Part shown: positions 8,426 to 48,682 of the stretch, in pieces
Position numbering within the stretch: the first letter of the stretch is position 1
Layout: the number at the start of each line of letters is the position of its first letter
NCBI GenBank assembly: GCA_964016885.1
Contig: OZ024742.1
Span: 243,598,001 to 243,662,000 of the forward strand
Source of the DNA: Eledone cirrhosa
Lineage: Eukaryota
Direction: 5' to 3'
Length of the DNA: 64,000 nt
Made by a program: the position numbers and the translations under genes
Notes under the pieces: generated by a model
Told to the model about the DNA's origin: nothing
The model's database searches: none
Seen by the model: only the letters and a program-made list of their open reading frames with translations

Positions 8426-8466
<41 letters not shown>

Positions 8467-8481
8467 TATATATATATAAAT

Positions 8482-8582
<101 letters not shown>

Positions 8583-8622
8583 AGAGAAAGAGAGAGAGAG
8601 AGAGCATGGGAAAATGGTCGTA

Positions 8623-8672
<50 letters not shown>

Positions 8673-8677
<5 letters not shown>

Positions 8678-8768
8678 GTCCCCAAAGAATGTATATACAC
8701 TTCAAACACCATTCTAATAAATATTGCCTGTACAGGTAATCAACGCGTGTATACATTTTGGGGGGACA
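8673..8768. mobile_element. Tiny Tc1/mariner-type MITE remnant
   Basis: Imperfect TIRs TGTCCCCAAAGAATGTATATACAC / GTGTATACATTTTGGGGGGACA next to (TA)n. Confidence 0.5.
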
Positions 8769-9699
8769 AAATTTCTACTTGTATTTTTCATATATTATCC
8801 AATTCTTATTGAGGAAAATATTAAATGATATCTCCGGACGATGAATGTTATGATTAATAATAACAATTGAAATGACAGTAGCTAATGTATCTGCCAACAG
8901 TAATTGAGATATGCATTAAGTTTTGAAATAAAAGAGAATGAAGACAGTCAATTTCTTTTTTTTTTTTAAACAATTCCAATTATGATTATATAAAATTAGA
9001 TATGCATTTCCTTCCCCTTTTTTTTTCTTTGTCAATGTAATTAAACTAATAAAATCGATTAATATAAAGCCACACTATTATGCAGTTTACCCAATATAGC
9101 TTTACACACACACAAACTTATTTTGGTTTAATGGGAAATATTGAAAATTTAGGTTAAAAACATGACACGTTGATGAATCCACACTGTCCATATCAATAGT
9201 GATCGTTATTAGCAATATGCAATATTGTCAGTCGGCACTATTACCAATGACAAGTCAACGAAGAAGTTTCTACGCAGCCATTCAACGTGCTAAAAATAGC
9301 AGCCCATTTCATTCATATCTCTCCCTGCTTTCGTCAGATAATATAGCCCCATATATACTCCGCCCAAAAAGTGCAAAAGACAGAAGAGTACAGCTGAAAC
9401 AGTTTGGATTGTTAATCAGCACAGTCAGAACTAACCTGAGGTTAATAAGAACAAACAATATAAAGCATTGGCAGAGAGCTCCTATTTGTTCGTTTGGCCT
9501 GCTACAAATAGCAGCCAAATGTCCCCTCCCCGACTTAAAAAATAAAGACGGATACATTGGATATAATAGTTCTAACTAGCTGTTCTTGAAAAAAACGGGA
9601 TATTCATGGCTGGAATGCTTTTGCTCATAAACATACTCGTTTAGGGTTGACCTGCAGTTAAAAATCAAATACCCGGCATGAAATGTTTGTATGTGTGTT

Positions 9700-9840
<141 letters not shown>

Positions 9841-10232
9841 CAGATGGGGTTGTAAATATTGAGGTAATAAAATCGGATGAGAATGTGGAACGGTCGGAAG
9901 CAACACGCTAACCTAAAAAGGTTTTCTCCGGTACTCCCCAAGGTTACCCACATATCCCTTGAAAAGTTATATATATCCGAGATATATCGGAATTAATAAA
10001 TATTAGCAAAGTAACAATCTCTGGCTTTTCATTTTTCTTTCCTTTCCTTTGCACTCAATCCCAGCCGTCTTCATTGTAGAGGCTTTCAAAACACCCACTT
10101 TTCAATTCCACAATGCTTCAGGCAAACTACAACACATTCATAATGTGTTTGCATGTATGTATGTGTGTGTGTGTATATATAGATATAGATATATAGATAT
10201 AGATATATAGATATATATATATATATATATAA

Positions 10233-10265
<33 letters not shown>

Positions 10266-10390
10266 AATATATATAAATATATATATATATATATAAATAT
10301 ATATATATATAAATATATATAAATATATATAAATATATATATATATAAATATATATAAATATATATATATATAAATATATATATATATAA

Positions 10391-10555
<165 letters not shown>

Positions 10556-10868
10556 AATATATATATAAATATATATATATAAATATATATATAAATATAT
10601 ATATATAAATATATATATATATAAATATATAAATATATATATATATAAATATATAAATATATATATATATATAAATATATATATAAATATATATATAAAT
10701 ATATATATAAATATATATATAAATATATATATAAATATAAATATATATATAAATATATATATAAATATATATATAAATATATATATAAATATATATATAA
10801 ATATATATATAAATATATATATAAATATATATATATATAAATATATATATAAATATATATATATATAA

Positions 10869-10903
<35 letters not shown>

Positions 10904-10962
10904 AATATATATATATATAAATATATATATATATAAATATATATATAAATATATATATATAA

Positions 10963-10995
<33 letters not shown>

Positions 10996-11020
10996 AATAT
11001 ATATATAAATATATATATAA

Positions 11021-11107
<87 letters not shown>

Positions 11108-11172
11108 TATATATAAATATATATATATATAAATATATATATAAATATATATATATATAAATATATATATAA

Positions 11173-11235
<63 letters not shown>

Positions 11236-11272
11236 TATATATAAATATATATATATATAAATATATATATAA

Positions 11273-11321
<49 letters not shown>

Positions 11322-11340
11322 TATATATATATAAATATAT

Positions 11341-11703
11341 ATATTGTTATATTTGGGGAGGGTCATATTTGCGTAATATTGCCAGAATTAATAACAGAAC
11401 ACACTCACTGTTTGGTTGGTTTTCGCTTCTCGCTGTCTTTTATATATATATATCTGCGATCTAGCTTACTCGGTCCTCAATGTTGCCATTGACTGACCGG
11501 CGGTCAGTCAATGGCAACATTGAGGACCGAGTAAGCTAGATCGCAGATATATATATATAAAAGACAGCGAGAAGCGAAAACCAACCAAACAGTGAGTGTG
11601 TTCTGTTATTAATTCTGGCAATATTACGCAAATATGACCCTCCCCAAATATAACAATATCTGTTTCGACACACGATTTCATATAAAAAACCTCGCAAAAC
11701 TAA
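11341..11703. mobile_element. Perfect palindrome (about 159-bp arms, centre 11500) from a PLE-like terminus, with one-sided tail
   Basis: 11341-11499 is the reverse complement of 11501-11659 with a 1-nt spacer. Tail 11660-11703 is homologous to the family A tail. Embedded in (TA)n. Confidence 0.75.
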
Positions 11704-11838
11704 ATATATATATATATAAATATATATATATATAAATATATATATATAAATATATATATATAAATATATATATATAAATATATATATATAAATATATATA
11801 TATAAATATATATAAATATATATATATAAATATATATA

Positions 11839-11874
<36 letters not shown>

Positions 11875-12072
11875 AATATATATATATATAAATATATATA
11901 TATAAATATATATATATAAATATATATAAATATATATATATATAAATATATATATATAAATATATATATATAAATATATATAAATATATATATATAAATA
12001 TATATATATAAATACATATATATAAATATATAAATATATATAAATATAAATATATAAATATATATAAATATA

Positions 12073-12112
<40 letters not shown>

Positions 12113-12129
12113 AATATATATATATATAA

Positions 12130-12164
<35 letters not shown>

Positions 12165-12174
12165 AATATATATA

Positions 12175-12226
<52 letters not shown>

Positions 12227-12236
12227 AATATATATA

Positions 12237-12270
<34 letters not shown>

Positions 12271-12280
12271 AATATATATA

Positions 12281-12336
<56 letters not shown>

Positions 12337-13193
12337 AATATATATATATAAATATATATAAATAAATATATATAAATATATATATATAAATATATATAAA
12401 TATATATATATAAATATATATATATAAATATATATAAATATATATATATAAATATATATATATAAATATATATATATAAATATATATAAATAAATATATA
12501 TAAATATATATATATATAAATAAATATATATATATATAAATAAATATATATATATATAAATAAATATATATATATATAAATAAATATATATATATATATA
12601 TAAATAAATATATATATATATAAATAAATATATATATATATAAATAAATATATATATAAATAAATATATATATATATAAATAAATATATATATATATAAA
12701 TAAATATATATATATAAATAAATATATATATATATAAATAAATATTTATATATATAAATAAATATATATATATATATATATATATATTAATATATATATA
12801 TAAATAAATATATATATATAAATAAATATATATATATAAATAAATATATATATATTTAACTGCTCGGAAATGCCCCTTTCTTGGAGCTGATTAATTGTAA
12901 ACGACTGAGAGTTTAATCTCAAAATATAATATAGTATAGAGAGAGAGAGAGATGTAAAATCCCGATCGCATATATATATATAAGTACATATATACATGCA
13001 TATGAACTCCTTTTTTTCTTTCATCTGAGAGTAAATCTACTAACATTAATTGATTTGTATCTGTGTTTGACTTTTTCAATATATATATATATTAAATTGT
13101 TAAACAATATTCAATGATTATGTCAAAGAATGAGTATATATATAGAGAGAGATAAATATACACGGGTGTGTAGGATTGTGTATAGAAGATTAT

Positions 13194-30217: not shown

Positions 30218-30325
30218 TATTTTCCGTTGTGTTGTAATATAAATATTACACACAGTAGATTATCAGCTCACGTAGAGTTTGCTCGACGGTTCCAGTTGTA
30301 GTTCCAAAAGTAATCCGGAGAAAAA

Positions 30326-31065
30326 TAGAAAGATTTGAATGGATACAGTTTAGTTGAAAGGAATTTATTGACACGTGTTTCTATAACAGTTACATAACCT
30401 AAAACAGCTATCTACAAACTTTTAGTTATGCAGACATTCAATATTTCAATGTTATTATTTACTGTCATTTCATCAGAATAATATTACTGAGGACCTATTT
30501 AGTTTTTATAGAGAATATTAGGAGGGAGGGGTGAAGTTGTTAGAAGAATAGTTGAAGGAGTGGTTTTTCGATAGCAGTGAGAATTCTTGGTGGCAGTGAG
30601 TAATTAGATTCCCATCTGTTGTTTTGACATTTTTTATGGAATATATTATTGGTTATTTTTCTAAATCTATAGAAGGATTAGAGATAGTAAAGATATGCGT
30701 GGTTGGTTTTGTGTTTGCACTTAACATTCAGACTTAAATTTTTCTTTCAAGTGTACGTATTCTTTCACCCACGCATTCACACAAATATATTTGCACACCT
30801 CTACAAAATACATATACTCACAATTCACATATTCATACTTACATATATATACACATGCATACACATATATATACACACATGTATTCATGTACATACATAC
30901 GCGCTCATGTGTATACATTTTCATACTCAACTTATCTTTATATATACACACGTATAGACACACACATATATACATACATACTCTAGTCCATGTGTACACA
31001 CATACGCATACATACACATCCACATACACATACATACATACACATATATATATATATATATACAT

Positions 31066-31122: not shown

Positions 31123-31759
31123 CCCACACACACACATATACACATACACACATATATATATATATATATATAAGCACTTTAATACATGAATACACTTACA
31201 TCTAACTATACACATCAAACATATATATATATTTACTTATTTATATACATTTTCACATATATATACATACTTATGGACGTTTTTAGACACATTCATTATC
31301 GCATATTTGTACCTATTCTCATCAGCATATCTTTTCATTATTAGTATGGTAATTTAAGGTTATTAATATATGTTGAGAAGAGATTGTTTTTATATTTTTC
31401 TAACTAGATTAAGGTTTATATAGTTGGGGGATGTCCCTCTTTTATGTAATATTCGGCTTGTAGTGGGAAAAAAGGGTTTTAGTTCTGTGACGGCAGAATA
31501 ATGTTCGTTCAATTCTGTTATTCAGCAGTTTCTTCTTGTGTGTGATTATGTAACTTCACCCCTCCCTCCTAATATTCTCTATAAAAACTAAATAGGTCCT
31601 CAGTAATATTATTCTGATGAAATGACAGTAAATAATAACATTGAAATATTGAATGTCTGCATAACTAAAAGTTTGTAGATAGCTGTTTTAGGTTATGTAA
31701 CTGTTATAGAAACACGTGTCAATAAATTCCTTTCAACTAAACTGTATCCATTCAAATCT

Positions 31760-31765
<6 letters not shown>
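30326..31765. mobile_element. Approximately 205-bp inverted repeats (30326-30530 / 31559-31765) around a microsatellite-rich spacer; PLE-like
   Basis: The arms are reverse complements; CTGATGA-AATG...CATT-GAAA core at about 31614-31650; (TA)n outside the right arm. Confidence 0.65.
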
Positions 31766-31811: not shown

Positions 31812-31885
31812 TGACGGACGGGCCAGGTTGCCCAATGGGAAGTGGGCCCACAGTAGCATTGCAGGTTCACCACTGCAGAATTTTA

Positions 31886-32112
31886 GCGGTCAATACTTTG
31901 CTTTCAAAAAGCAACTTTAAAAATAAGTCAAAGAGAAAGAATAATTTTTTTTTTAAATAAACAAAGCAAAGCATTTGGTCAAACAATTCCCTAGGGAATT
32001 AAAGGGAATTGTTTGACCAAATGCTTTGTTTATTTGTTTATTTAAAAAAAAAATTATTCTTTCTCTTAGACTTATTTTTAAAGATGCTTTTTGAAAGCAA
32101 AGTATTGACCGC
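31886..32112. repeat. Imperfect palindrome, about 105-bp arms
   Basis: GCGGTCAATACTTTGCTTTCAAAAAGCA ... TGCTTTTTGAAAGCAAAGTATTGACCGC with centre CAATTCCC...GGGAATTG. Confidence 0.85.
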
Positions 32113-32519
32113 TCATAATAAAATTACACATACAAACGAGCTGCTGGCCAAATAACATTTGAATCAATGGGTTAAAGACATGTAAAAGCAATTAGTGTTC
32201 AGTTCTTCAGTCTAAAGTCCCTAGGGAGAATAAGTCGCCAAATAATTTTTGTACAAGTTCAAAACATGTATGTATATGTATGTATACATATATATAAATC
32301 TATATATACACATGTACATGTATATGTACACACATACACACACTCCCAACTGAATATATTGAGTAAGTGTGAAAAACCAAAGGTCATTATTGAAAGTCTC
32401 TGGATGTGTATATTTCACGAGGTACTTTATATTTTTTTTATTGGAGAAAGTAACAACGATCACTTGCATACTCTACTCTAAATAACAGTAGGAAAAGATA
32501 TTTAACGTTTTGGACGTCA

Positions 32520-33569: not shown

Positions 33570-35749
33570 CAAGGGGGATATAATCGATAATTTCAGGCCC
33601 ATAACCCTGCTAAACGCAGAGTTCAAGATTTTGGCCAAGGTGTTAGCAACGAGGTTGGCGCTTGTCGTCAAGGGTCTGGTGGGAGAGGCGCAGACATGCG
33701 CCATTCCGGACAGATCCATACACGACAACCTCCACCTCATGCGATACATCATAGAGAGGGTGGTTAAGGAACCTGGCACGGGTGGGGCCCTGATCAACTT
33801 GGATCAATCCAAAGCATTCGATAGGGTCGACCATCGGTACCTGGTGGCGGTCCTCGAGGCAGCCGGTTTCGGGCCCGTTTTCAGGGGTTGGATCGCAGCA
33901 ATGTACAGCGACATCTGCTCAGTTGTGAGGGTGAACGGTCACCTGTCGCAGCCGTTCAGCATCATGCGCTCAGTCCGCCAGGGTTGTCCCCTCTCGTCCC
34001 TCTTGTACGTATTGGCTCTCGAGCCGTTACTGCACAAACTGGGGGCGATGAGGGGCGTCCCACGCGAACTAGGATGCGGGAAATCCGAGTCGGCTTACGC
34101 TGACGACGTCACCGTGGTGGTGTCGAGCACCAGACACGTCCAGATGCTCGGCACCGCTCTCAAGGAATACGAAGCGGTGACAGGAGCAAAGATAAACCAG
34201 GAAAAGTCGGTGGGCTTGCAGCTCGGCACCTGGAGAGGCAAGTCCATGTCGTCCGACAGCGTCGTGGGGCGTTGGACGGACGGACCGGTTAAATTGCTCG
34301 GGGTCTGGTTCGGACCGGACCTCCAGATGGAGAAAAACTGGAACGAGGTGACGAGCAAGGTGGCCTCCCTCACCCAGAAATGGGCCGAGAGGAAGCTGTC
34401 CCTGAAAGGCCGGGCGGAGGTGGCGAATGCGAACATCGCATCTGTCATCTGCTACCGCCTCACCGTCGTCCCTTGCTCCAGCCCAACTCTCACCAAAATG
34501 GAGCGCCTCCTCCTCCGCTTTTTGTGGAAGGGACGCGCTCCCATGGTCAGACGATCCATCTGCTGTCAACACCCGTTGCGTGGAGGACTGGGCAATCCAT
34601 GGCTGATGATGCGCAAACATGCGCTGAGGCTGCGACATCTCTGGTGCTTCCTTGATGGTGAACAGGTGTGGTCGCCGTTCGCCAGGCACGTTTTCCCACA
34701 GCTCGTCTCCTTGACGGAGCTGCAGTTCTGGGTCAGAAAAAGACGGAGGGATGGCGCTTGGAAACTGGAATGTCTCCAGGCGCTCACTGCCCTCTGCCAG
34801 CTGGGCACCAGTATCGGTGGAACATCCACCTCGGCGTTCTATAGAGGACTAGTGGAGGGGAAGAGCGACAACATTCTCGGAGAGATCCTGGGCGTCGAAG
34901 AAGATCAGCTGTTTGTTCTCTTCCGGAGAACTTTCAGCCCGGGGCCTATGGATAACTTCCAAAAATCTCTGGCCTGGCAGTGCTACCGGAGAGCGCTGCC
35001 GGTTCGAGATAAGCTCTACAGGCACGGAAGTGCCGTCAGCCGAGCCTGTCCGAGATGCGCGCAGAGCGACGAAACCGTCGTGCACGCACTCGTTCAGTGC
35101 CCGAGCATTGCTGACTTGTGGAGCTGTCGAACAGTTGCTGTCGCGTGTAGGACTGATCCGGTTGTCGACTGAGTCCATTGTGCAGATGGTCTCGCCGTCT
35201 TCCTTCGAGGAGGAAGGGCAGGCGGTTTTCATCTGCCTGGTGGCCATGGCGAAAGAGATTGTATGGTGGACAAGGTTGAAAGGGTTAAAGACAGACACTT
35301 TCCTCTTCGGCGAATCCCTAATTAACTTTTTCAAGTTTCACTTGAAGAGGAACATCAGGGTGGAGAGGCAAGTGCTGCTTTCTAGCAAGTTTGTTGAAAG
35401 GTGGGTGAATATAGCGAGAATGGTCCGAGTGAACGGGACCGCTCTGAATATATGTCTGTAGTTTGAGAGATGGAAAAATTGAGAGAGGGCGCTTGCCCTG
35501 GTGGTCAGGGTGGCTGTGGTCTTTTGTGTGGTTTTCGCCACGAGTAACCCTCGGAGGTTTCCCCCCTATTGGGGAATTTTTCATTGTTTCAATTTTCATT
35601 TTTATTGTTTATATTTATGTTTCTATGTCCTTTTTTTTCTTTTCTTATATAAATAATAAAAATATTTACACGCACAAAACCCACATCGTACCGTCCTGTG
35701 CCGTCTGTAATGTTTTTCTTGATGTCAGCCCTTGTGGCCAATAAAGAAA

Positions 35750-35781
<32 letters not shown>
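33570..35781 (+). mobile_element. Tx1/L1-clade LINE copy 1: 5'-truncated, ORF2 frameshifted near 35125, (ATT)n tail
   Basis: Starts inside RT (NFRPITLLN); QGCPLS, YADD, CPRC...H...C finger; stop at 35461; AATAAA then (ATT)10. More divergent than copies 2 and 3 are from each other. Confidence 0.95.
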
Positions 35782-35990
35782 GGCGACCTACGTAGTAAAT
35801 CGTATCATCGTGAGCTCCGCAAAGGTTTGTTATTTCCGTTTGTTAAAAATTGCCATTTATGGAAAATTTTATTGTTAACTGTTTATAAGCATACATACAT
35901 TGTTTTCCGAAAAGGACACCCAAAAAGATTGGGGCCTTGTGCCCAAAATTTTAACTTTTATTATTATCAAAAAATTTCTTTTAAAAAAAA

Positions 35991-37983
35991 ATGGCTAATT
36001 CACCTCTGCAACAAGCAGCTGAAAGCCTTCCTCACAAATTAACACCTCACACCGACACCACCATTGTAAATGTTACTACGTTTGCCAACACAAAAAAAAA
36101 ATATAAGCAGTAGCAATATTTTAAATTTGTCTCAGGCAGACATTTATTTCCCGCCATTACCAATGACTGCAGGTGTTAAAGCCTCCACCACCACCACCAC
36201 CGCGACAACCACCACCCCCACCACCACCGCGACAACAGAAACAAAAGAAGAAGAAAATAAATTAACTCGTGATGTCGAAATGAAATCAAGCAAAATGGAC
36301 TCTTCCGCACCAAAGACGACTGACGTCACCACCACCACAACTGAAACTAAAATTAATATTAACGATAGCAACAACAACAACAATGACATTATAAAACCGA
36401 CCCTCAGTTTCGCCAGAGTAGCAAAACAATTCGAAGCTTGTACGGTAACTCAGGAGGATTTAGAAAATGCCAAACAAATGGTAAAGAAAGATGGGTACAG
36501 GGTCAGCCTCACCCCCCCCCCCCTACCTAATAAAATGGAGCATCGGCGCCTATGCACAGTGTCGTATAGAACAATAAATGTAAAATCGCGCCGAGTGGAA
36601 CAGGCATCCGAGTCCCAAATCCAAAAAGCTTTGGGACATGTGTGGGGAAGAAAAACCCACATTAGACGTGGGCAAAAGTATGGAACCGTGGACGTGTTCT
36701 TTGAAACACCAGAGGAGGCTAGAGAACACTCCATGGCCCCATTAAAAAGTGACGACTTCACACTCGTCCCAAGCTATTGTGGCCAGAGACTCGTAAAGAT
36801 CAGGGTGACCCACGTTCCACCGGCCATCGAAATTCCCTGGCTAATAGCGGCCGTCCTCGCCGGCATCGAAGCCAACACGAAAATAATAGCAGTAGCAAAA
36901 GAAAAGCAGGAAAACTAGTCCGGATCTGGGATGGAGCTCCTGATCCAAGCGGACCAAAAAAGCATTGAGGAGATCCCAGAGGTAATAGACCTCACTGACG
37001 GCAGCCACCTCACGGTAATTGTCGAGGGCAGAAGACCTAGGTGTGTCGTTTGTGGTGAAGGAACCCACCTAAGGGCTTTCTGCCCTCAGGCTAAAAGGTT
37101 GAGGCCACCTCTACTACCCACCCCAGTGACACAACCATCAACACCACCAGTAGCAGAGATGGCAGCAACAACTGTAGCAGCAACAACAGAAGCAACTATA
37201 ACAGTAACAACCCCAGCAACAGTAGCAAAACCAACACCACTACCACCACCAGCAAAACCAACACCACCACCACCCAACGCTTCAGAACTAGCACCAGCGC
37301 CTACACCATCCACCACACCACAACCAAAACTAACGGCTGTGGAGGATTTTCCACTCCCCGGCCTATCACAACTGGAGACAGATTGTGACGACGAGGAGTG
37401 GGAAACGATATCCGGAAATAAAAAAAGAAACCAAAAAAGAAAAAATTCTCTTCCTTCCCCCTCCAAAAACAAAATACAGAGGGAAACAAATAAACTAAGA
37501 AACAAAAAAGTTAGGACAGATATGCCACCATCCACACCAGCATCACCAACCCCATCAACCCAAACACCAACACCATCACCATCATTATCCCCAGCACCAC
37601 CATCACCTACACCACAAAAGTCACCAAAATGCGAAACAGAAACAAACCCACAACAAACGCAAACAAAACAAAACAACCAAAACGATACACACTACACAGC
37701 ATTAAATTTGAACAACAAGCAATTATTACACTACATCCAACACAACACCAGCATCACAGAAAAAGACTACACAACAACCCCAAAATTCACACCACCTCCA
37801 CACATACAAATCACTCGCATCACACAGAAAACGTACATGACACTAAAACAAAAATTCCCCAAAGACATCGGAGACTTCCGACAAGCACTCTCCAGGAGGA
37901 TTTATAAGGACATCCTTCCTGAGGAGGCCACAAGCAGTGAAAAGGATGGAAAAGCCGTCCTTCCCCTACGAGAAGTAAGGTAA
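35991..37983 (+). pseudogene. ORF1 of copy 2 (RRM-like, CCHC knuckle, Pro/Thr-rich), disrupted
   Basis: Inferred start ATGGCT at 35991, shift in the A-run at about 36092-36101, TAG at 36916-36918 (Trp in copy 3), KYGTVDVFF, CVVCGEGTHLRAFC (CX2CX4HX4C). Confidence 0.85.
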
Positions 37984-38017
37984 GTGGTCTTTCCCATCTT
38001 TTCCACTCCTTTTCAAC

Positions 38018-41000
38018 ATGGCCTCACTCAGAATAGGCAGCATAAATGCGCGTGGCTTGGGGTCGTCATGGAAGCAGGGTCACCTGCTCAACGACCTCAG
38101 GTCACTAAACATAGATGTAGTGGCCATCAGCGAGACCAGAATCTCCGAAGCACAGGCTTTCGCACCGATCTTCGGCGGCTACGATGTGTACGCATCTCCC
38201 AGCCGTCCGGGATCGGGGGGAGGAGTTGCTGTGCTTTTTCGAAGAGGTTTGGATCTTGCCATACGGGCCATCTTCCTGGACCCAGAAGGTAAGTTGGTGG
38301 TGCTGGACGTGACCAGCGGAGACGGGCAAGCTTTCAGGTTAGTGGCCGTCTATGCCCCGACAGGAGCAGGGCGGCCTGATTTCTTCCGGCGTCTGGAGAC
38401 CTTTCTTGGAACGTCCCGCTCTTTAGTGTTAGTGGGCGACTGGAACGGGATCTTAGATGCACGCTGGGATTGTGTGGGATTAGTGGATAGGGAAGGAGGG
38501 TGCAAGAGTCTCACCAACCTGCTCAGACGTTTTGAACTGTCTGACAGGTACCGAATGGATTTCCCGAATGTACCAATGTGGACTTGGACAAATCGCATAG
38601 GGTCATCCAGATCATATCTAGATAGAGTATTTTGTAGGGAAATAGATAGGTCTAGCATAGGCTGTCCACAATTCAAGATAGTCAGCTACACGGACCACAA
38701 ATTCGTGATCTGTGTGCTTGACTTAGATAGGCTTCATAGACGAAGACCCGGCTACTGGAAGTTAAACGCGTCCTTACCAGCGCGCAAGGCCTACAGAGAC
38801 CGGATTAGCGAGCTAGTTAAGCGGGCGTTGACGGGGGCCATCGTCAACAACAAGTGGTGGTTTGCTCTGAAAAGAGCAATTAGAATAGAGTCCATTAGGT
38901 TTAGTAAGACTTTAGCAATAGAGAAAAATAGAGCAGAGGGAGAATTAGTTAGAAAATTAGATGAGGCGCTTAGCAAAGGCATCGCGACCGACGTACTTGC
39001 GGCGAAATTGGCCCTTGGCCAATTCTTCAATGCAAAGCACGAAGGCTGCGTTGTCAGAGCTAGGGTGCGTGCTCTCAGACACGAGGGGACGAAAGCCGTT
39101 CAATGGGCCCGAGTGGCGGAGGCGCGTCGTGGCAACAAAGCCACGATCCGGTCTTTGGTGGACCACGACGGGCGCATGCTACTCGATCCCGGGCAAATGT
39201 GTGAAGCTTTTCAGCGACACTTCGCTCAACTGTTCGGGGGCAGTGGCGGGCCGGATCGAGGGATGGACTTTAGTGTCTACCTCGACGGACTGCCGCGGCT
39301 TTCGGCCACTGAGGTGGAGTGTTGCGAAAAGCCGATAACAACCGCTGAAGTACGGGATGCAATGACTAGTTGCACAAGGGGTAAATCGCCTGGTTTGGAT
39401 GGTCTGCCCTATGAACTTTACGTACAAATGCCAAACTTGTTCGGAGGCCTCTTGGCGGACGTCTACTGCAACTGGCAACAGAACGGGAGAATTCCCAGTT
39501 CTGTGAGCCGAGGAGCGGTGGCGCTGCTGAGAAAGGATCCGAACAAGGGGGATAACATAGATAATTTTAGGCCCATAACTCTGCTAAACACAGAGTTCAA
39601 GATTTTGGCCAAGGTGGTAGCAAAGAGGTTGGCGCTTGTCGTTGGTGGTCTGGTGGGAGAGGCACAGACATGCGCCATTCCCGACAGATCCATCCACGAC
39701 AACCTCCACCTCATGCGATACATCGTAGAGAGGGTAGCTAGGGAACCTGGCACGGGTGGGTCTTTGATCAATTTAGATCAGTCGAAAGCCTTCGATAGGG
39801 TCGACCATCGTTACCTAGCGGCAGTCCTGCGGGCGGCTGGCTTTGGGCCCGTCTTCAGAGGCTGGATCGCTGCCATGCACAGCGACATCTGCTCTGTAGT
39901 GAGAGTGAACGGTCACCTTTCGGAACCGTTCAACATCATGCGCTCGGTCCGCCAAGGATGTCCCCTCTCGTCCCTAATGTACGTATTGACTCTCGAGCCA
40001 TTACTGCACAAACTGGAGACGTTGAGGGGGGTCCCGCGCGAACTAGGATGCGGAAGATCCGTGTCAGCATATGCCGACGATGTCACCGTAGTGGTGTCGA
40101 ACGCCAAACACATCGAGGCGATCGGCACTACACTAAGAGAATACGAAGCGGTGACAGGAGCAATGATCAACCAGGAAAAGTCAGTGGGCCTGCAGCTCGG
40201 CACCTGGAGAGGCAGGTCCATGCTGTCCAACAGCGTCGTCGGGCGCTGGACGGACGGACCGGTTAAATTGCTAGGGGTCTGGTTCGGTCCAGACCTCCAG
40301 ACGGACAAAAACTGGGACGAGGTGACGAGCAGGGTGGCTTCTCTCACCCAGAAATGGGCCGAGAGGAAGCTATCCCTGAAAGGTCTAGCGGAGGGGGCTA
40401 ACGCGTACATCGCGTCCGTCATCTACTACCGCCTGACCGTCGTACCTTATCCTAAGCCCCGCCAGACTGCGCTGGAGCGTTTGCTCTTTCGCCTTTTGTG
40501 GAAGGGACGCGCTCCGATGGTCAGGCAGTCCATCTGCTGTCAACACCCGCTACGTGGAGAGCTGGGAATGCCGTGGCTGATGATGCGCAGACACGCGCTC
40601 ATGCTACGACATCTCCACCTCTTCCTCGACGTTGACCAGGTGTGGTCGCCATTTGCTAGACGCGTCTTTCCCCAGCTCGTCTCCTTGACGAAGCTACAGT
40701 CCTGGGTCAAGCGAAGACCGAGAGGGAGCGCTTGGAGACTGGAATGTCTTCAGGCGCTCACAGCCCTCGACCAATCGGGCAATGTGATCGGTGGAAACTC
40801 CACCTTGGCGTTCTATAGAGGATTAGTGGAGGGGAAGAGCGACGACGTATTTGGGGAAACTCTAGGCGTCGACGAAAATCAACTAGCCAATCTCTTCGGA
40901 AGAAATTTCGGGCCGGGGCCTATGGACAACTTCCAGAAACCCCTGGCCTGGCAGTGCTACCGAGGAGCTTTGCCAGTTCGGGATAAACTCTACAGGCATG

Positions 41001-41443
41001 GAGGTGCCGTCGGCCGGGCATGTCCGAGATGCGCGCAGGGCGACGAAACCGTCCTGCACGCACTCGTCCAGTGTCCGAGTATTGCTGACTTGTGGGTTTA
41101 TGTCGAACACCTGCTGTCGCGTGTAGGACGGATCCAGCTATCAGCTGAGTCCATCGTGAGGATTGCCCCGCCCTCTTCCTTTAGCCGGGAAGGGCAGGCA
41201 GTTTTTATCTGTCTCGTGGTGGCCATGGCGAAAGAGATAGTATGGTGGACACGTTTGAAAGGGCTGAAGACGAGCATTTACCTCTTCGGTGATGCCCTGA
41301 TTAACATTTTTAAATTTATTTCATTTGAAAAGGAAAATCAGGGTAGAGGGGAAGTGCTCTCTTCCCAGCATTTTGCTGAAAGATGGGTGAGAGAGGCAAG
41401 AATGGCCCGAGTGAATGGGCCTTCTCTGAGTATGTGTCTGTAA
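38018..41443 (+). CDS. ORF2 of copy 2: AP endonuclease, reverse transcriptase, C-terminal zinc finger
   Basis: SINARGL, AISET, GDWN, YLDR, TDH (APE); KSPGLDG, FRPITLLN, KAFDRV, QGCPLS, YADD; CPRC-X8-H-X4-C. Compensating indels near 41315-41350. Confidence 0.95.
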   Translation: MASLRIGSINARGLGSSWKQGHLLNDLRSLNIDVVAISETRISEAQAFAPIFGGYDVYASPSRPGSGGGVAVLFRRGLDLAIRAIFLDPEGKLVVLDVTSGDGQAFRLVAVYAPTGAGRPDFFRRLETFLGTSRSLVLVGDWNGILDARWDCVGLVDREGGCKSLTNLLRRFELSDRYRMDFPNVPMWTWTNRIGSSRSYLDRVFCREIDRSSIGCPQFKIVSYTDHKFVICVLDLDRLHRRRPGYWKLNASLPARKAYRDRISELVKRALTGAIVNNKWWFALKRAIRIESIRFSKTLAIEKNRAEGELVRKLDEALSKGIATDVLAAKLALGQFFNAKHEGCVVRARVRALRHEGTKAVQWARVAEARRGNKATIRSLVDHDGRMLLDPGQMCEAFQRHFAQLFGGSGGPDRGMDFSVYLDGLPRLSATEVECCEKPITTAEVRDAMTSCTRGKSPGLDGLPYELYVQMPNLFGGLLADVYCNWQQNGRIPSSVSRGAVALLRKDPNKGDNIDNFRPITLLNTEFKILAKVVAKRLALVVGGLVGEAQTCAIPDRSIHDNLHLMRYIVERVAREPGTGGSLINLDQSKAFDRVDHRYLAAVLRAAGFGPVFRGWIAAMHSDICSVVRVNGHLSEPFNIMRSVRQGCPLSSLMYVLTLEPLLHKLETLRGVPRELGCGRSVSAYADDVTVVVSNAKHIEAIGTTLREYEAVTGAMINQEKSVGLQLGTWRGRSMLSNSVVGRWTDGPVKLLGVWFGPDLQTDKNWDEVTSRVASLTQKWAERKLSLKGLAEGANAYIASVIYYRLTVVPYPKPRQTALERLLFRLLWKGRAPMVRQSICCQHPLRGELGMPWLMMRRHALMLRHLHLFLDVDQVWSPFARRVFPQLVSLTKLQSWVKRRPRGSAWRLECLQALTALDQSGNVIGGNSTLAFYRGLVEGKSDDVFGETLGVDENQLANLFGRNFGPGPMDNFQKPLAWQCYRGALPVRDKLYRHGGAVGRACPRCAQGDETVLHALVQCPSIADLWVYVEHLLSRVGRIQLSAESIVRIAPPSSFSREGQAVFICLVVAMAKEIVWWTRLKGLKTSIYLFGDALINIFKFISFEKENQGRGEVLSSQHFAERWVREARMARVNGPSLSMCL

Positions 41444-41933
41444 ATTAAAGGTGGAAAACTGGGAGAGGGCACTTGCCCTAGTGGTCAGGGTCACTGTGGC
41501 TTTTTAATGGGCTTTCTCCACGAATGTCTCTTGGAGGTCTCCCCCCATATTGGGGAATTTTTTCATTGTTCTATTATTACATCCTCTGTTTCTTGTTTTT
41601 TTTTACACGCAGAAATGCCCTTTTGTACCCTCCTGTATTGTCCTGTACTGTCCTTAATGTCTACTTTATGTAAACCCTTGTGGTTAATAAAGAAAACATT
41701 ATTATTATTATTATTATTGAATGCCATGGTTGACGGAGGCTCGGCTCTGTAAGGTATAGTAATTTTTAACCGTTAAAACAATTGTAAATTGTTTAAAACT
41801 TGAACCAAATTGTTGATAAAGACACCCTCCTCCTCGTGAGAGGGGTCTTTCTGTCCGTTATTTGGCCCTTCGGGGTTAAATAACCAGTTATTGGGGTTTT
41901 GTACCCAAAATTTCATTTTAAACAAAAAACAAC

Positions 41934-44039
41934 ATGGCTACGAAAAAGAAATTTCATACGTCACTCCCACTCATTCCGTCTTCTTCTTCCTCAATCATCA
42001 CTACAGCAGAGAGAAGATTGTCTCTCTCCCTCCCTTCTTTAAATGTGTCTCTCTCCCTCCCTTCTCTTTCGCAAGTGACGAAAGAAAAGAAAAGTCTCGT
42101 GCAAAGCGTGCAAGGTTTCTCTACGACGACAGCGACGAAACAGGTGTGCGGGAAATACGAAAACCCAGTTCATTCGTCTGACGTCAGGAATAATAGCAGT
42201 AGCAGCCGTAATAACAACAGCAACAGTGACAATGAAAACAACAGTAGCAGCCGCAACAGCATCACCAGCAGCATAAACAACAACAGCATTAGCAGCAGCA
42301 ACACCAACAACAACCACAGCAACAGCGGCGGAGGCAGTAGTCGTAGTACCTGCAGCAACAACAAAAGTACCAGCAGCTCTGACGACAACAACAACAGCAG
42401 AGAAAAACCAATCTCATTTGCAGGTATTGCGAAAAACTTGGAAACAATCCTCATAACAAATGAGGAATTAGAGGAAGCGAAGAAGATGGTGACAAAGAAC
42501 GGACACCGAGCAATCTGCAAGGCAGCGGAAAAATTTTTCGAAACCCAAGAGCACTGTACGGTCACGTACCGTACAGTAAGTACAAAATCCCGTAGGGTGG
42601 AAAGAGCCACAGAGGCCCAAATACAAAAAGCCTTGGGGTCTGTGTGGCAGCGGAAAACGCACATCACCCGAGGCAAAAAATATGCCACCGTAGACGTACT
42701 TTTTGCCACACCCCAGGAGGCAAAGGCCCAATCAGTAGTGACCCTAAGGAGCGAGGAAATGGTGTTGGTGCCCTCCTACTGCGGGCAAAAAATTGTGAGG
42801 GTCAAACTGACCCACGTCCCCCCCCCCCCCCCCCCCCCCCCCCGGAATGACCCCTTCTTGGCTGGCCGCGTCTGTCCTCGTCGGAATCGAGGACAAAACA
42901 ACTGTACTGCAAGTACAGAAAAAAGTAAGAGAAGATTGGGTCGGCTCCTCCATTGAGATGCTAATCCAAACCAACCAGGAGTGCATCGAAGCTATCCCGG
43001 ATGTGATAGACTTCGATAACGGCACTCAACTGCCCATAAGTGTTGAGGGCAAACGCCCGAAATGCTTTCGCTGTGGATCGAAGACTCACCTCAGGGCCTT
43101 CTGCAACGAGAAGACCCTGAGAAAGGAGAAAACCCCCCTCCTTCCGAATCCGGCTCCACGGCTACCAGCAACAGGACAAGCGGCAACCAGGAACGATAGG
43201 TCCGTGGCACCCATACCCACTCCACGGAAATCAAAAACAGCAGCAGTGGAAATATTAACAACAACAACAGCAATACCAAATGCAGCTGCAACAGAGACTC
43301 CAGTAAAACATCACCAACAACAACAAGTGAAAGAGTGGAGCTGGTACCCCTCCCCGACCTCACAGAATCAGACATGGAGTGTGAGGTGGGAGAGGGATGG
43401 CAAAAGGTCGCAAGAAGGCACAAACGCAGAAGCAGCGCATCGTCGCCTTTGAAAAGGGAGGAAAGAAATGAGAAAAGGGTAAAGTCTACTGCAAAGAGAC
43501 CCACAGCAGCAACACTACCAACACCATCACCACCCACACCAGCACCACCATCACCACCGGCGACAACCCCACCGCCAACAACACCTTCAACACCACCACC
43601 ACAAGCACCAACATCGCAAACACAACAACAAAACACACACACCCAGCAACAACGACAAGAAAATAGCAGAACCACACCCCACCCCCAGAAAAACAAATGC
43701 ACGGCAATAAACACACACAACAAGAAACTAATGACTTACATAATTGAACACACAGACATTTCACAACAGGACTACATAATACCAGCACCAATCAAAACGC
43801 CAACTAACATAAGACTGCTAAAAATAGCACAGAAACAATACACAAACATTAAAACGAAATTCCCCAACGCAGTTGGTGATTTCAGGGACCTAGGAGGAAC
43901 CATCAATCGAAGAGTATATTCAGACATTCTCTTAGAAGAGCCGACGACCAGCCGAAGGGACGATTCAACGGTCCCTTCACCAGACGATCAAGTGAAAAGG
44001 GATGTAAAAACCATCCCTCCTCTACCAAAAGTACGGTAA
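41934..44039 (+). pseudogene. ORF1 of copy 3 (Ser/Asn-rich N-terminus, RRM-like, CCHC knuckle, Pro/Thr-rich) in three frames
   Basis: Frameshifts at the poly-C run (about 42818-42843, possibly a sequencing error) and near 43310-43340; KYATVDVLF, CFRCGSKTHLRAFC. Confidence 0.85.
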
Positions 44040-44074
44040 GTGGTCTTTCCCATCTTTTCCACTCTATTTTAAAC

Positions 44075-47000
44075 ATGACCTCACTCAGAATAGGCAGCAT
44101 AAATGCGCGTGGCTTGGGGTCGTCATGGAAGCAGGGTCACCTGCTCAACGACCTCAGGTCACTAAACATAGATGTAGTGGCCATCAGCGAGACCAGAATC
44201 TCCGAAGCACGGGCCTTCGCACCGATCTTCGGCGGCTACGATGTGTACGCATCTCCCAGCCGTCCGGGATCGGGAGGAGGAGTTGCTGTGCTTTTTCGGA
44301 GAGGTTTGGATCTCGCCATACGGGCCATCTTCCTGGACCCAGAGGGTAAGCTGGTGGTGCTGGACGTGACCAGCGGAGACGGGCAAGCTTTCAGGCTAGT
44401 GGCCGTCTATGCCCCGACAGGAGCAGGGCGGCCTGATTTCTTCCGGCGTCTGGAGACCTTTCTTGGAACGTCCCGCTCTTTAGTGTTAGTGGGCGACTGG
44501 AACGGGATCTTAGATGCACGCTGGGACTGTGTGGGATTAGCGGATAGGGGTGGAGGGTGCAAGAGCCTCACCAACCTGCTCAGGCGTTTTGAACTGTCTG
44601 ACAGGTACCGATTGGATTTCCCGAATGTGCCAATGTGGACTTGGACAAACCGTATAGGGTCATCCAGATCATATCTAGATAGAGTATTTTGTAGGGAAAT
44701 AGATAGGTCTAGCATAGGCTGTCCACAATTCAAGATAGTCAGCTACACGGACCACAAATTCGTGACCTGTGTGCTTGACTTAGATAGGCTTCATAGACGA
44801 GGACCCGGCTACTGGAAGCTAAACGCGTCCTTACCAGCGCGCAAGGCCTACAGAGACCGGATTAGCGAACTAGTTAAGCGGGCGTTGACGGGGGCCATCG
44901 TCAACAACAAGTGGTGGTTTGCTCTGAAAAGAGCGATTAGAATAGAATCGATTAGGTTTAGTAAGGCTTTAGCAATAGAGAAAAATAGAGCAGAGGGAGA
45001 ACTAGTTAGAAAATTAGACGAGGCGCTTAGCAAAGGCATTGCGACCGACGTGCTTGCGGCGAAATTGGCCCTTGACCAATTCTTCAATGCAAAGCACGAA
45101 GGCTGCGTTGTCAGAGCTAGGGTGCGTGCTCTCAGACACGAGGGGACGAAAGCCGTTCAATGGGCCCGAGTGGCGGAGGCGCGTCGTGGCAACAAAGCCA
45201 CGATCCGGTCTTTGGTGGACCACGACGAGCGCATGCTACTCGATCCCGGGCAAATGTGTGAAGCTTTTCAGCGACACTTTGCTCAGCTGTTCGGGGGCAG
45301 CGGGGGGCCGGGTAGAGGGATGGACTTTAGTGTCTACCTCGACGGACTGCCGCGGCTCTCGGCCACTGAGGCGAAGTGTTGCGAAAAGCCGATAACAGCC
45401 GCTGAAGTAAGGGAGGCAATGACTGGCTGCACAAGGGGTAAATCGCCTGGTTTGGATGGTCTGCCCTATGAACTTTACGTACAGATGCCAGACTTGTTCG
45501 GAGGCCTCTTGGCGGACGTCTACTGCAACTGGCAACAGAACGGGAGAATTCCCAGTTCTGTGAGCCGAGGAGCGGTGGCACTGCTGAGAAAGAATCCGAA
45601 CAAGGGGGATAACATAGATAATTTTAGGCCCATAACTCTGCTAAACACAGAGTTCAAGATTTTGGCCAAGGTGCTAGCAAAGAGGTTGGCGCTTGTCGTT
45701 GGTGGTCTGGTGGGAGAGGCGCAGACATGCGCCATTCCCGAGAGATCCATCCACGACAACCTCCACCTCATGCGATACATCATAGAGAGGGTAGCTAAGG
45801 AACCTGGCACGGGTGGGTCCTTGATCAATTTAGATCAATCGAAAGCTTTCGATAGGGTCGACCATCGTTACCTAGCGGCAGTCCTGAGGGCGGCTGGCTT
45901 TGGGCCCGTCTTCAGAGGCTGGATCGCTGCCATGCACAGCGACATCTGCTCTGTGGTGAGAGTGAACGGTCACCTGTCGGAACCGTTCAACATCATGCGC
46001 TCGGTCCGCCAAGGATGTCCCCTCTCGTCCCTCTTGTACGTATTGACTCTCGAGCCATTACTGCACAAACTGGAGACGTTGAGGGGAGTCCCGCGCGAAC
46101 TAGGATGCGGAAGATCCGTGTCAGCATATGCGGACGATGTCACCGTAGTGGTGTCGAACGCCAAACACATCGAGGCGATCGGCACTACACTAAGAGAATA
46201 CGAAGCGGTGACAGGAGCAATGATCAACCAGGAAAAGTCGGTGGGCCTGCAGCTCGGCACCTGGAGAGGCAGGTCCATGCCGTCCAACAGCGTCGTCGGG
46301 CGCTGGACGGACGGACCGGTTAAATTGCTCGGGGTCTGGTTCGGTCTGGACCTCCAGACGGACAAAAACTGGGACGAGGTGACGAGCAGGGTGGCTTCTC
46401 TCACCCAGAGATGGGCCGAGAGGAAGCTATCCCTGAAAGGTCGAGCGGAGGTGGCTAACGCGTACATCGCGTCTGTCATCTGCTACCGCCTAACCGTCGT
46501 ACCTTGTCCTAAGCCTCGCCTGACTGCGCTGGAGCGTTTGCTCTTTCGCTTTTTGTGGAAGGGACGTGCTCCGATGGTCAGGCGGTCCATCTGTTGTCAA
46601 CACCCGCTACGTGGAGGGCTGGGCATGCCGTGGCTGATGATGCGCAGGCACGCGCTCAGGCTACGACATCTCCACCTCTTCCTCGACGGTGATCAGGTGT
46701 GGTCGCCGTTTGCTAGACGCGTTTTTCCCCAGCTCGTTTCCTTGACGGAGCTGCAGTCCTGGGTCAAGCGAAGACCGAGAGGGAGCGCCTGGAGACTGGA
46801 ATGTTTTCAGGCGCTCACAGTCCTCGACCAATCGGGCAATGTGATCGGTGGAAACTCCACCTCGGCGTTCTATAGAGGATTAGTGGAGGGGAAGAGCGAC
46901 GACGTACTTGGGGAAACTCTAGGCGTCGACGAAAATCAACTAGCCAAACTCTTCGGAAGAACTTTCGGGCCAGGGCCTATGGACAACTTCCAGAAATCTC

Positions 47001-47494
47001 TGGCCTGGCAGTGCTACCGAGGAGCCTTGCCAGTTCGGGATAAACTCTACAGGCATGGAGGTGCCGTCAGCCGGGCATGTCCGAGATGCGCGCAGGGCGA
47101 CGAAACCGTCCTGCACGCACTCGTCCAGTGTCCGAAAATTGCTGACTTGTGGGTTTATGTCGAAAACCTGCTGTCGCGTTTAGGACGGATCCGGCTATCA
47201 TCTGAGTCCATCGTGAGGATTGCCCCGCCCTCCTCCTTTAGCCGGGAAGGGCAGGCAGTTTTTATCTGCCTGGTGGCCATGGTGAAAGAGATAGTATGGT
47301 GGACACGTTTGAAAGGGCTGAAGACGAGCACTTACCTCTTCGGTGATGCTCTGATTGACTTTTTCAAATTTCATTTGAAAAGGAAAATCAGAGTAGAGAG
47401 GGAAGTGCTCTCTTCCCAGCATTTTGTTGAAAGATGGGTGAGAGAAGCAAGAATGGCCCGAGTGAATGGGCCTACTCTGAGTATATATCTGTAA
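44075..47494 (+). CDS. ORF2 of copy 3: intact APE-RT-ZnF, 1139 aa
   Basis: All motifs listed for copy 2 are present, with no disruptions. Confidence 0.96.
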   Translation: MTSLRIGSINARGLGSSWKQGHLLNDLRSLNIDVVAISETRISEARAFAPIFGGYDVYASPSRPGSGGGVAVLFRRGLDLAIRAIFLDPEGKLVVLDVTSGDGQAFRLVAVYAPTGAGRPDFFRRLETFLGTSRSLVLVGDWNGILDARWDCVGLADRGGGCKSLTNLLRRFELSDRYRLDFPNVPMWTWTNRIGSSRSYLDRVFCREIDRSSIGCPQFKIVSYTDHKFVTCVLDLDRLHRRGPGYWKLNASLPARKAYRDRISELVKRALTGAIVNNKWWFALKRAIRIESIRFSKALAIEKNRAEGELVRKLDEALSKGIATDVLAAKLALDQFFNAKHEGCVVRARVRALRHEGTKAVQWARVAEARRGNKATIRSLVDHDERMLLDPGQMCEAFQRHFAQLFGGSGGPGRGMDFSVYLDGLPRLSATEAKCCEKPITAAEVREAMTGCTRGKSPGLDGLPYELYVQMPDLFGGLLADVYCNWQQNGRIPSSVSRGAVALLRKNPNKGDNIDNFRPITLLNTEFKILAKVLAKRLALVVGGLVGEAQTCAIPERSIHDNLHLMRYIIERVAKEPGTGGSLINLDQSKAFDRVDHRYLAAVLRAAGFGPVFRGWIAAMHSDICSVVRVNGHLSEPFNIMRSVRQGCPLSSLLYVLTLEPLLHKLETLRGVPRELGCGRSVSAYADDVTVVVSNAKHIEAIGTTLREYEAVTGAMINQEKSVGLQLGTWRGRSMPSNSVVGRWTDGPVKLLGVWFGLDLQTDKNWDEVTSRVASLTQRWAERKLSLKGRAEVANAYIASVICYRLTVVPCPKPRLTALERLLFRFLWKGRAPMVRRSICCQHPLRGGLGMPWLMMRRHALRLRHLHLFLDGDQVWSPFARRVFPQLVSLTELQSWVKRRPRGSAWRLECFQALTVLDQSGNVIGGNSTSAFYRGLVEGKSDDVLGETLGVDENQLAKLFGRTFGPGPMDNFQKSLAWQCYRGALPVRDKLYRHGGAVSRACPRCAQGDETVLHALVQCPKIADLWVYVENLLSRLGRIRLSSESIVRIAPPSSFSREGQAVFICLVAMVKEIVWWTRLKGLKTSTYLFGDALIDFFKFHLKRKIRVEREVLSSQHFVERWVREARMARVNGPTLSIYL

Positions 47495-47742
47495 ATTAAA
47501 GGTGGAAAACTGGGAGAGGGCACTTGCCTTGGTGGTCAGGGTCATTGTGGCTTTTTACTGGGCTTTCTCCACAAATGTCCCTCCGAAGTCTGCCCCCTAT
47601 TAGGGAATTTTTCATTGTTATTTTTTGTTACATCCTCTGTTTTTGTTTTTTACACGCAGAAATGCCCATTTGTACCGTCCTGCATTGTCCTGCACTGTCC
47701 TTAATGTCTACTTTATGTAAACCCTTGTGGTTAATAAAGAAA

Positions 47743-47780
<38 letters not shown>

Positions 47781-47782
47781 AA

Positions 47783-47976
47783 GAGCGGTGGATTGGTAGT
47801 ATCAGTAGCGCGTCAGACACCATGCTTTGCAGCATAGAGTTATGGCTCTTTAATTCTAAGTTCAAATCCCGCCGAGGTTAACTTTGCCTTTCATCCTTAC
47901 GGGGTCGATAAAATAAAGTACCAGTAATGCACTGGGTAATTGCTGGCCTTGTGCCAAATATAGAAACAATTATTAT
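47783..47976 (+). mobile_element. ATT-tailed tRNA SINE a few bases after the tail of LINE copy 3
   Basis: A-box TGGTAGTATCAG, B-box GTTCAAATCC, body GCCTTTCATCCTTACGGGGTCGATAAAATAAAGTACCAG, tail TGGCCTTGTGCCA...AGAAACAATTATT. Confidence 0.9.
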
Positions 47977-47983
47977 CATAGTA

Positions 47984-48195
47984 TCTATACATATATATAA
48001 AACTGAAATTGTATTTGTGTGTGTGTGTGTATGTGTGTGTGTGTCATATTTTTTGCAAAGTCTATTCAAATCTACATTTCTACTCCGATTGACTTCAAAC
48101 TTGCATTTATATATTCCTTGCGGTCTAAAGATATTAACTGCAGCTTTTATTTTTCAATTTTCTGTTGTTAAAGGCATGTTAGGCGCCGGTTAGCG
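47984..48195 (+). mobile_element. Probable Helitron 5' fragment
   Basis: A|TCTATACATATATATAAAA start, (GT)n, CCGATTGACTTCAAACTTG motif resembling non-autonomous Helitron 5' regions. Confidence 0.45.
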
Positions 48196-48270
48196 ATCTC
48201 TCTCTCTCTCTCTCTTTCTTGGTCTGTCTTTTTAAATAGATACATAGCTATAACGTCGCGCCCTTATAAT

Positions 48271-48449
48271 TGTTTCTACTTTAGGCACAAGGCCAGCAAT
48301 TATCCAGTGCATTACTGGTATTTTATTTTATCGACCCCGTAAGGATGAAAGGCAAAGTCAACCTCGGCGGGATTTGAACTCAGATCGTAAAGGGACGTAA
48401 CTATGCTGGAAAGCATGGCGTCCGACCCTCTACCGATACTCCCAATCCA
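48271..48449 (-). mobile_element. ATT-tailed tRNA SINE with 9-bp TSD
   Basis: CCTTATAAT at 48262-48270 and 48450-48458; near-identical to the units at 26640-27030. Confidence 0.88.
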
Positions 48450-48682
48450 CCTTATAATATATGTCTGCATTACGACATCATGAAAACATTGTTCTCATTG
48501 CTGACGTATTATCTTCGCTATTTTCCGTTCATTGCCAGGAACGTCTTCACGAACCAAAGTATCGTCTTCCTGTTTTCCTTCGGTTGCAACGTTTTTCGAT
48601 TGATTTTTTTAGTTTCAGAAGATGTCGTTAAGGGTGAAAGCAGCGATTCTTTGCTTAAACTTTAATCTGTTGTTTTAATATA

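Follow-up and report, generated by a model that had tools for sequence, protein, structure and literature searches.

Three LINE copies lie head to tail on the + strand of the window (the whole stretch of 64,000 nucleotides that was analysed), at about 33570-35781, 35782-41718 and 41719-47780, and are followed by a SINE. Every unit begins on the (ATT)n tail of the preceding one, the three LINEs and the SINE being joined at ATT runs; this stacking on (ATT)n, the basis for a target specificity, is seen at four junctions only. The features of the array are as follows:

~33570-35781, + strand: copy 1, a 5'-truncated LINE
35728-35738, + strand: 3' hairpin of copy 1, GCC-CUUGU-GGC
35782-35990, + strand: 5'UTR of copy 2, beginning immediately 3' of the (ATT)n tail of copy 1
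35991-37983, + strand: ORF1 of copy 2, with an inferred start codon, an A-run frameshift near 36100, a stop at 36916-36918 and a CCHC zinc knuckle
38018-41443, + strand: ORF2 of copy 2, with endonuclease, reverse transcriptase and zinc-binding end; 94% amino acid identity to copy 3
41673-41685, + strand: 3' hairpin of copy 2, AACC-CUUGU-GGUU, then AATAAA, GAAA and (ATT)n
41719-41933, + strand: 5'UTR of copy 3
41934-44039, + strand: ORF1 of copy 3, frameshifted, with an inferred start codon and a core of about 54% amino acid identity to copy 2
44075-47494, + strand: ORF2 of copy 3, intact, 1139 amino acids
47720-47732, + strand: 3' hairpin of copy 3
47781-47979, + strand: SINE on the (ATT)n tail of copy 3, ending in UGGC-CUUGU-GCCA, GAAA and ATT repeats

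The host element is a LINE of the L1 clade (L1/Tx1-like), having two ORFs, with ORF2 nearest to L1 ORF2p: its Pfam domains are Exo_endo_phos, RVT_1 and zf-RVT, and among solved structures the best match is human L1 ORF2p (E 1e-50), with R2 at 1e-21. One short protein match bears the name Octopus sinensis, a lead towards an octopus host. For ORF1, the search in the Atlas returned only leads below 0.9. Copies 2 and 3 are 94-95% alike over ORF2 and the 3'UTR, with 509 of 546 fourfold sites identical in ORF2, while their ORF1s are deeply diverged and saturated at such sites (9/51 identical). Module exchange is visible in this pattern, as the 5'UTR and ORF1 stretches 35782-37935 and 41719-43990 are saturated and similarity starts just 5' of ORF2. 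Elsewhere in the window there are a 229-bp palindrome (31885-32113), a perfect pair of 214-bp inverted repeats about 1 kb apart (30325-30538 and 31552-31765) and, in positions 1-13000, kilobases of near-pure A/T simple repeat.

The 3' signal of the LINEs and SINEs

Ten hand-picked termini of the window (3 LINE, 7 SINE) align without gaps, and in these alignments three of the four stem pairs change on both sides, whereas the closing C-G pair is present in 10/10 and the loop CUUGU in 9/10. The LINE and SINE ends have in common the 3' hairpin with its covarying stems, the spacer, GAAA and the ATT tail, all in exact register; the SINE tails are found at 47948, 59800, 56334, 48291, 26878, 26678 and 61492. 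The same hairpin is kept in a lineage at 41% ORF2 identity, which came from a genome scan giving 46 loci, 41 of them from the assembly CAXXMW01. This assembly is labelled a bacterial MAG; many of its contigs (loci L073-L116) consist of intact LINEs arrayed in tandem over long stretches, their ORF1s and leaders being of several types, and are likely host contamination. All 35 distinct tails recovered there, by anchoring on an upstream 12-mer that left loop and closing pair free, read GGC-CUHGU-GCC (19 CUUGU, 14 CUCGU and 2 CUAGU), these being closely related copies and not 35 independent events. Taking the 3' ends together, the closing C-G pair is found in 45/45, a CUHGU loop in 44/45, the loop base C1 in 44/45 and U5 in 45/45. 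Judged from these alignments, the 3' signal is an old one, with loop and closing pair fixed and stem free.

Such a hairpin, with a fixed loop and a covarying stem common to LINE and SINE, resembles those of ZfL2-1, ZfL2-2, UnaL2 and the monocot and algal L1 lineages. In the stringent LINEs of zebrafish, as shown experimentally (PMC4176376), it is the loop that is read, and the stems can be swapped; the corresponding part of PMC3747384 gives stringent-type cases in L1 for monocots and an alga only. The sequences of the window suggest that an animal LINE of the L1 clade uses stringent-type recognition, and this LINE would be the likely partner of the SINE.

A block common to the two leaders

As noted in the first-pass annotation, a similar 18-mer hairpin sequence stands before ORF1 in copies 2 and 3, 44 and 25 nt ahead of the inferred ATGs at 35991 and 41934. 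Both 18-mers were found where they had been placed, within a shared stretch of 24 nt. The resemblance of copy 2 to a 3' end continues past the hairpin into the spacer and the ATT repeats, a feature missed earlier:

35928-35951, + strand: conserved block of copy 2, holding the hairpin 35929-35946, with inner stem GGGC/GCCC and loop CUUGU at 35936-35940
41890-41913, + strand: conserved block of copy 3, holding 41891-41908 and differing from copy 2 only at 41897, 41898 and 41903
35925-35967, + strand: segment of copy 2 resembling a 3' terminus, whose hairpin, spacer and ATT repeats all fall in register with those of the SINE

The two blocks, located 147-172 nt into the leader, are identical at 21/24 positions, and their local score of 33 is matched by 0.1-0.2% of dinucleotide shuffles (p ~0.001-0.002). 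A degenerate pattern, which matches both sites by construction since it was built from them, occurs at these two places only in the window at up to three mismatches, with 0 expected, and shuffling the two UTRs yields a YUUGU loop on four Watson-Crick pairs at rates of 1.3% and 0.9%, two frequencies that are not independent, since the UTRs are homologous. The leaders had been described as otherwise unalignable, which did not hold: further upstream, some 80 nt can be aligned with about 63% identity, at p 0.006-0.07 in three scoring schemes. Should the remaining UTR really be 60-65% identical, 21/24 is unremarkable over all windows. The search of Rfam over 35400-48500 gave eight hits, all far under the gathering scores, so that no known ribozyme or leader family is matched, and an HDV-like ribozyme reading of the first hairpin of copy 3 did not stand up to inspection by eye.

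In the two blocks, all 17 stem and flank bases are the same, and the three changes, namely both bases of the closing pair and the loop base C1, fall within the 7-nt core of closing pair and loop, for which the chance is 0.017, calculated post hoc and from two sequences. The closing pair is C-G in copy 2 and U-A in copy 3, the swap already reported, which is compensatory (chance ~0.065). The outer stem is without covariation and equally fits a DNA element. In addition, the block outlasts the synonymous saturation of ORF1.

The letter identity of arms and flanks (17/17) around a variable centre is also what would be seen if the block were a DNA element of an internal promoter, near-palindromic TTGGG-N8-CCCAA with fixed flanks, the hairpin being incidental. 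To our knowledge, no factor has this spacing, and the sole double change, being compensatory, speaks against such a reading. Short L1 5'UTRs do retain promoter-type motifs across divergent families, as described in the part of PMC5381506 covered, but the conserved motifs published there sit at the 5' extremity, in contrast to a block 147-172 nt into the leader. The same text describes an 8-mer, GAGCTCCG, shared by all frog L1 5'UTRs about 40 bp from their start, and this 8-mer is present in copy 2 at 35812-35819, which agrees with a promoter function of the leader. On the whole, the promoter reading is clearly unlikely. As an observation on its own, GAGCTCCG lies 31 nt into the copy-2 leader, with no variant among the substitutions listed over 35790-35831.

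Regarding the likeness to a 3' terminus, the stretch 35933-35967 of copy 2 agrees with the local SINE end at 28/35 positions without gaps, compared to a maximum of 24 in 5000 shuffles, and with the element's own tail at 22/35, less than with the SINE end. The kinship with the 3' hairpin is borne out for copy 2, which carries, letter for letter, the GGC-CUUGU-GCC present in the SINE tail and at the 3' ends of the distant lineage (chance 1.5e-4, from shuffles). In the covariance model of the ten termini, the copy-2 site gives a full-length alignment of 21 bits, the best match of the window that is not a terminus, with an E of 0.11 window-wide and 4e-4 within the UTR. In the scan of the 5'UTRs with this model, as had been proposed, the copy-3 site scores 8.5 bits (E 0.25); each site is the top model match in its own UTR, while true termini score 45-69 bits. 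Copy 3 agrees with a SINE-type terminus at 16-17/35 positions, which is not significant (p 0.72), the core alone being kept, and on this evidence it is tied to the 3' signal solely through copy 2. The first-pass annotation had also equated the YUUGU loop with the 3' loop, an identification that does not hold in this form: the 3' consensus is CUHGU on C-G, from which the UUUGU on U-A of copy 3 departs at three positions that are invariant or nearly so.

The match of copy 2 is 24-43 nt long and nearer to the SINE or an ancestral end than to the present tail of the element. As for a donor of the leader, the upstream UTR matches neither the body of the local SINE nor any 3'UTR beyond the hairpin. 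Had the ATT repeats of copy 2 been neutral and present since the two leaders split, they should have decayed, so a later exchange is possible.

Variation, related lineages and folding

Contigs of four sequencing runs (four coded organisms from three studies) were placed on 35690-36250, with the copy-2 leader, at 80% likeness. The variation data cover this leader from 35790, with 35690-35789 skipped, so that they offer no like-for-like comparison with the 3' tail. The copy-2 leader was found in all four runs; its motif is a family feature and not an accident of one copy. Among 40 of the 42 substitutions, at least 22 fall in 35790-35990, none of them in the stems and one in the block, where the loop base 35940 changes from T to A (loop CUUGA). 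For X1 (42 contigs), this variant makes up 32% of the depth, for X5 (one contig) 14%, and it is absent from X6 and X7, run depth not being equal to copy number. That the stems carry no substitution is within chance expectation (P 0.21, and 0.23 for the whole block). All four runs have A as the majority base at 35952, which brings the sequence one step nearer to the SINE end, and X6 and X7 have extra short contigs over about 35933-35966, seen from depth and not from their letters, as would be expected if termini elsewhere match the segment. Among the loose ends listed (262 more lie outside the listing), none supports a stop at the ATT repeats. The idea that the 5'UTR is a free-standing short element was left unsupported, as an X7 contig spans 35790-36202 into ORF1.

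Comparing these variants with the 3' ends, the 5' motif, including its U5 variant, changes at four positions that are fixed there and at none that are free, and the loop bases U2 and G4 are retained in all 5' variants seen.

For the distant lineage of CAXXMW01, 45 intergenic segments were collected and four were dropped, the called ORF not being the start of ORF1, leaving 41 UTRs of 14 types. Having the same 3' hairpin, this lineage shows a 5' copy in 0/41 UTRs when a GC-containing hairpin with a NUNGN loop is sought; there is one AT-rich match of four pairs. For the refuting condition that the motif be absent from other full-length copies, the outcome is divided, the motif being present in the copy-2 family and missing from this relative. 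Homology of the window's leaders to these 5'UTRs was not accepted, as 4/56 comparisons reached p <0.03 and were weak and AT-rich. Among more remote sequences, no viral contig showed the protein, an alignment or the motif. Metagenomes gave 72 loci of distant relatives, mostly 23-33% identical, and in these and five distant genome loci the search for GC-rich YUNGU hairpins returned two isolated matches of unclear meaning; the covariance-model scan of the distant loci is uninformative, as nearly all their true 3' hairpins were also missed. The hairpin 11-mer GGCCTTGTGCC also recurs in every unit of a tandem repeat of about 286 bp (L119:5760 and 6046), in a context unrelated to LINE tails.

The leaders of the distant lineage have other features as well. 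A splice-donor-like GTAAG[T/A] motif is present in 13 of the 14 leader types (e.g., L074:6277-6737 and L076:6670-6989), one group also carrying a pyrimidine-rich CAG acceptor-like site, and AAG|GT is found at positions that correspond in the alignment of the two window leaders (close to 35824 and 41753); from these motifs, a leader intron is possible. Short upstream ORFs occur in the leaders of the window at 35859-35888 (9 codons), 41721-41759 (12) and 41726-41752 (8).

The folding predictions, which are protein-free and could be shifted by a bound protein, differ between the two copies, and they bring in three further hairpins:

35914-35936, + strand: rival hairpin CCCAA/TTGGG using the same G-run, with predicted pairing of 0.14-0.65 depending on context and temperature
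41815-41855, + strand: predicted hairpin in the copy-3 5'UTR
41857-41884, + strand: predicted hairpin in the copy-3 5'UTR with a cUUCGg tetraloop

The copy-2 hairpin has a predicted pairing probability of 0.36-0.71 in the context of its UTR, where it competes with the upstream CCCAA/TTGGG hairpin, in which a 35920 C>T variant would retain a U-G pair. In copy 3, the register with a 5-nt loop is predicted at 0.01-0.09, an 8-nt loop or another hairpin being preferred. The stem as first drawn has 7 versus 6 bases, with an unpaired G. The segment 41815-41933 folds with a z of -3.25, none of 200 shuffles being as stable; for the copy-2 segment, the predicted fold is not more stable than those of its shuffles (z 0.5). 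The second copy-3 hairpin, with 12 predicted pairs, is absent from copy 2, and a long C-rich/G-rich hairpin resembling that of 41815-41855 recurs in the L073-L116 leaders. In 12 of the 14 5'UTR types of this lineage, a stem is predicted to end immediately 5' of the AUG, its paired bases differing from type to type.

With these data, the 5' hairpin can be weighed as a second, weaker binding site of ORF2p, serving feedback on ORF1 translation, cis-loading, a decoy function or completion of the 5' end. The exact 11-mer of the SINE and distant LINE hairpins with its spacer and ATT repeats in copy 2, the retained U2 and G4, the compensatory closing pair and the rank of each site as the best model match in its UTR agree with it, and for Bombyx mori R2, the available part of PMC12503042 describes a protein that binds a 5' RNA motif plus the 3'UTR. 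On the opposite side, copy 3 alters the closing pair and C1, which are invariant or nearly so in 3' ends, U5 is changed in X1 and X5, the loop register of copy 3 is hardly predicted to form, the lineage with the same 3' hairpin lacks a 5' copy and both sites score far below true termini. The inverted constraint, together with the folding, weakens recognition of the loop by ORF2p, and the claim that the motif is kept for this purpose is not supported on these grounds, to which the U5 variant and the related lineage without the motif add. The inverted constraint has its own counterpoints, given that it comes from two sequences only, that U2 and G4 are kept throughout and that the closing-pair change is compensatory. 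Overall, a second ORF2p site is rather unlikely. A related version, in which the captured mimic of the whole 3' signal acts as a deliberately weakened ORF2p site that throttles ORF1 translation or tethers the 5' end, is unlikely; if true, it would amount to autoregulation from a duplicated 3' signal.

The block could also be functionless, being either a captured terminus of the copy-2 lineage that reached the other subfamily in a fairly recent event of template switching or conversion over a short stretch, or a part-chance match on a homologous background. The family does exchange modules, as the similar ORF2 and 3'UTR behind saturated ORF1s indicate, three differences in 24 are of the same order as the 7% fourfold divergence of ORF2, the invariance within the family is not significant and the related lineage has no such motif. 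Nevertheless, such an exchange would have to be confined to this one hairpin, and the differences are concentrated at its centre, a compensatory pair among them. An absence of function is quite unlikely.

Proposed capture of a 3' terminus and comparison with known systems

The reading preferred here, tentatively and at somewhat less than even confidence, is that the motif derives from a captured 3' terminus and was retained in the leader as a stem that likely tunes the translation of ORF1 rather than serving as an ORF2p site. Its first part, that an ancestral 5'UTR captured the 3' end of a retroelement, of which the block is what remains, is likely, based on the 28/35 match to a terminus, the full-length model alignment, the short contigs of X6 and X7 and the junctions at ATT runs. 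A family targeting (ATT)n would put truncated copies right behind the terminus of another element. Thus, a copy truncated just before the start of ORF1 could have landed on the tail of another element, and read-through transcription with the upstream DNA would have made this terminus part of the leader; alternatively, a short terminus could have inserted into the leader, which would look identical. Presumably there was a single capture, which preceded the split of the two 5' modules. That the stem was then kept is suggested by the changes, which hit the closing pair and loop, fixed in true 3' ends, while stem and flanks are unchanged, and by the survival of the block where the synonymous sites of ORF1 are saturated. 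Selection may act on a G-C stem 25-44 nt before the AUG that would tune ORF1 initiation, and this stem may be the counterpart of the pre-AUG stem of the related lineage.

The elements of the L1 type replace their 5'UTRs, and the source of the new leader sequence is rarely visible. A piece of leader whose source is recognisable as the 3' end of a retroelement, in a family inserting on such ends, would provide a concrete route of replacement. Binding of the 5' copy by ORF2p would, if real, represent a rare instance of a LINE regulating itself via a duplicated 3' signal; as the sequence evidence leans against this binding and the motif is lineage-restricted, the impact is moderate. In the running text of the literature covered (figures, supplements and Repbase being outside this scope), no case is described in which the leader of a LINE carries a copy of a 3' recognition hairpin, and the parts of PMC5786205, PMC4758252, PMC4824008 and PMC9115989 covered present no matching case.

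Comparing the block with known systems, the 3' hairpin of stringent-type LINEs has a fixed loop and a free stem, whereas the 5'UTR copy described here has a fixed stem and flanks and a variable loop. The Drosophila element TART, judging from the part of PMC1636488 covered, is similarly a tandem non-LTR element with sequence common to its 5'UTR and 3'UTR, for which read-through or a template jump has been proposed as the source of the extra 5' sequence; its 5'/3' direct repeats are also mentioned in the corresponding part of PMC5537684. It differs in that its repeats are long, derive from the element itself and are linked to transcription starts, compared to 24-43 nt nearer to a SINE or ancestral end. 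The structured 5' RNA of Bombyx mori R2, bound by its own protein, is the precedent for an ORF2p site; however, R2 is an element with a single ORF and a restriction-like endonuclease, its 5' motif, which overlaps this ORF, is said to be unconserved in other R2s, and the motif is not described as a copy of the 3' signal in the portion of PMC12503042 covered. The Tx1 families Kibi and Koshi insert into simple repeats, similar to the (ATT)n stacking at the four junctions, and microsatellite targeting and template switching are described for Tx1 in the same available part of PMC4494074. Lastly, the replacement of L1 5'UTRs shares with the present locus the modular 5' exchange and the short conserved leader motifs, which are sites of the transcription-factor type at the 5' extremity, unlike the block, within the extent of PMC5381506 covered.
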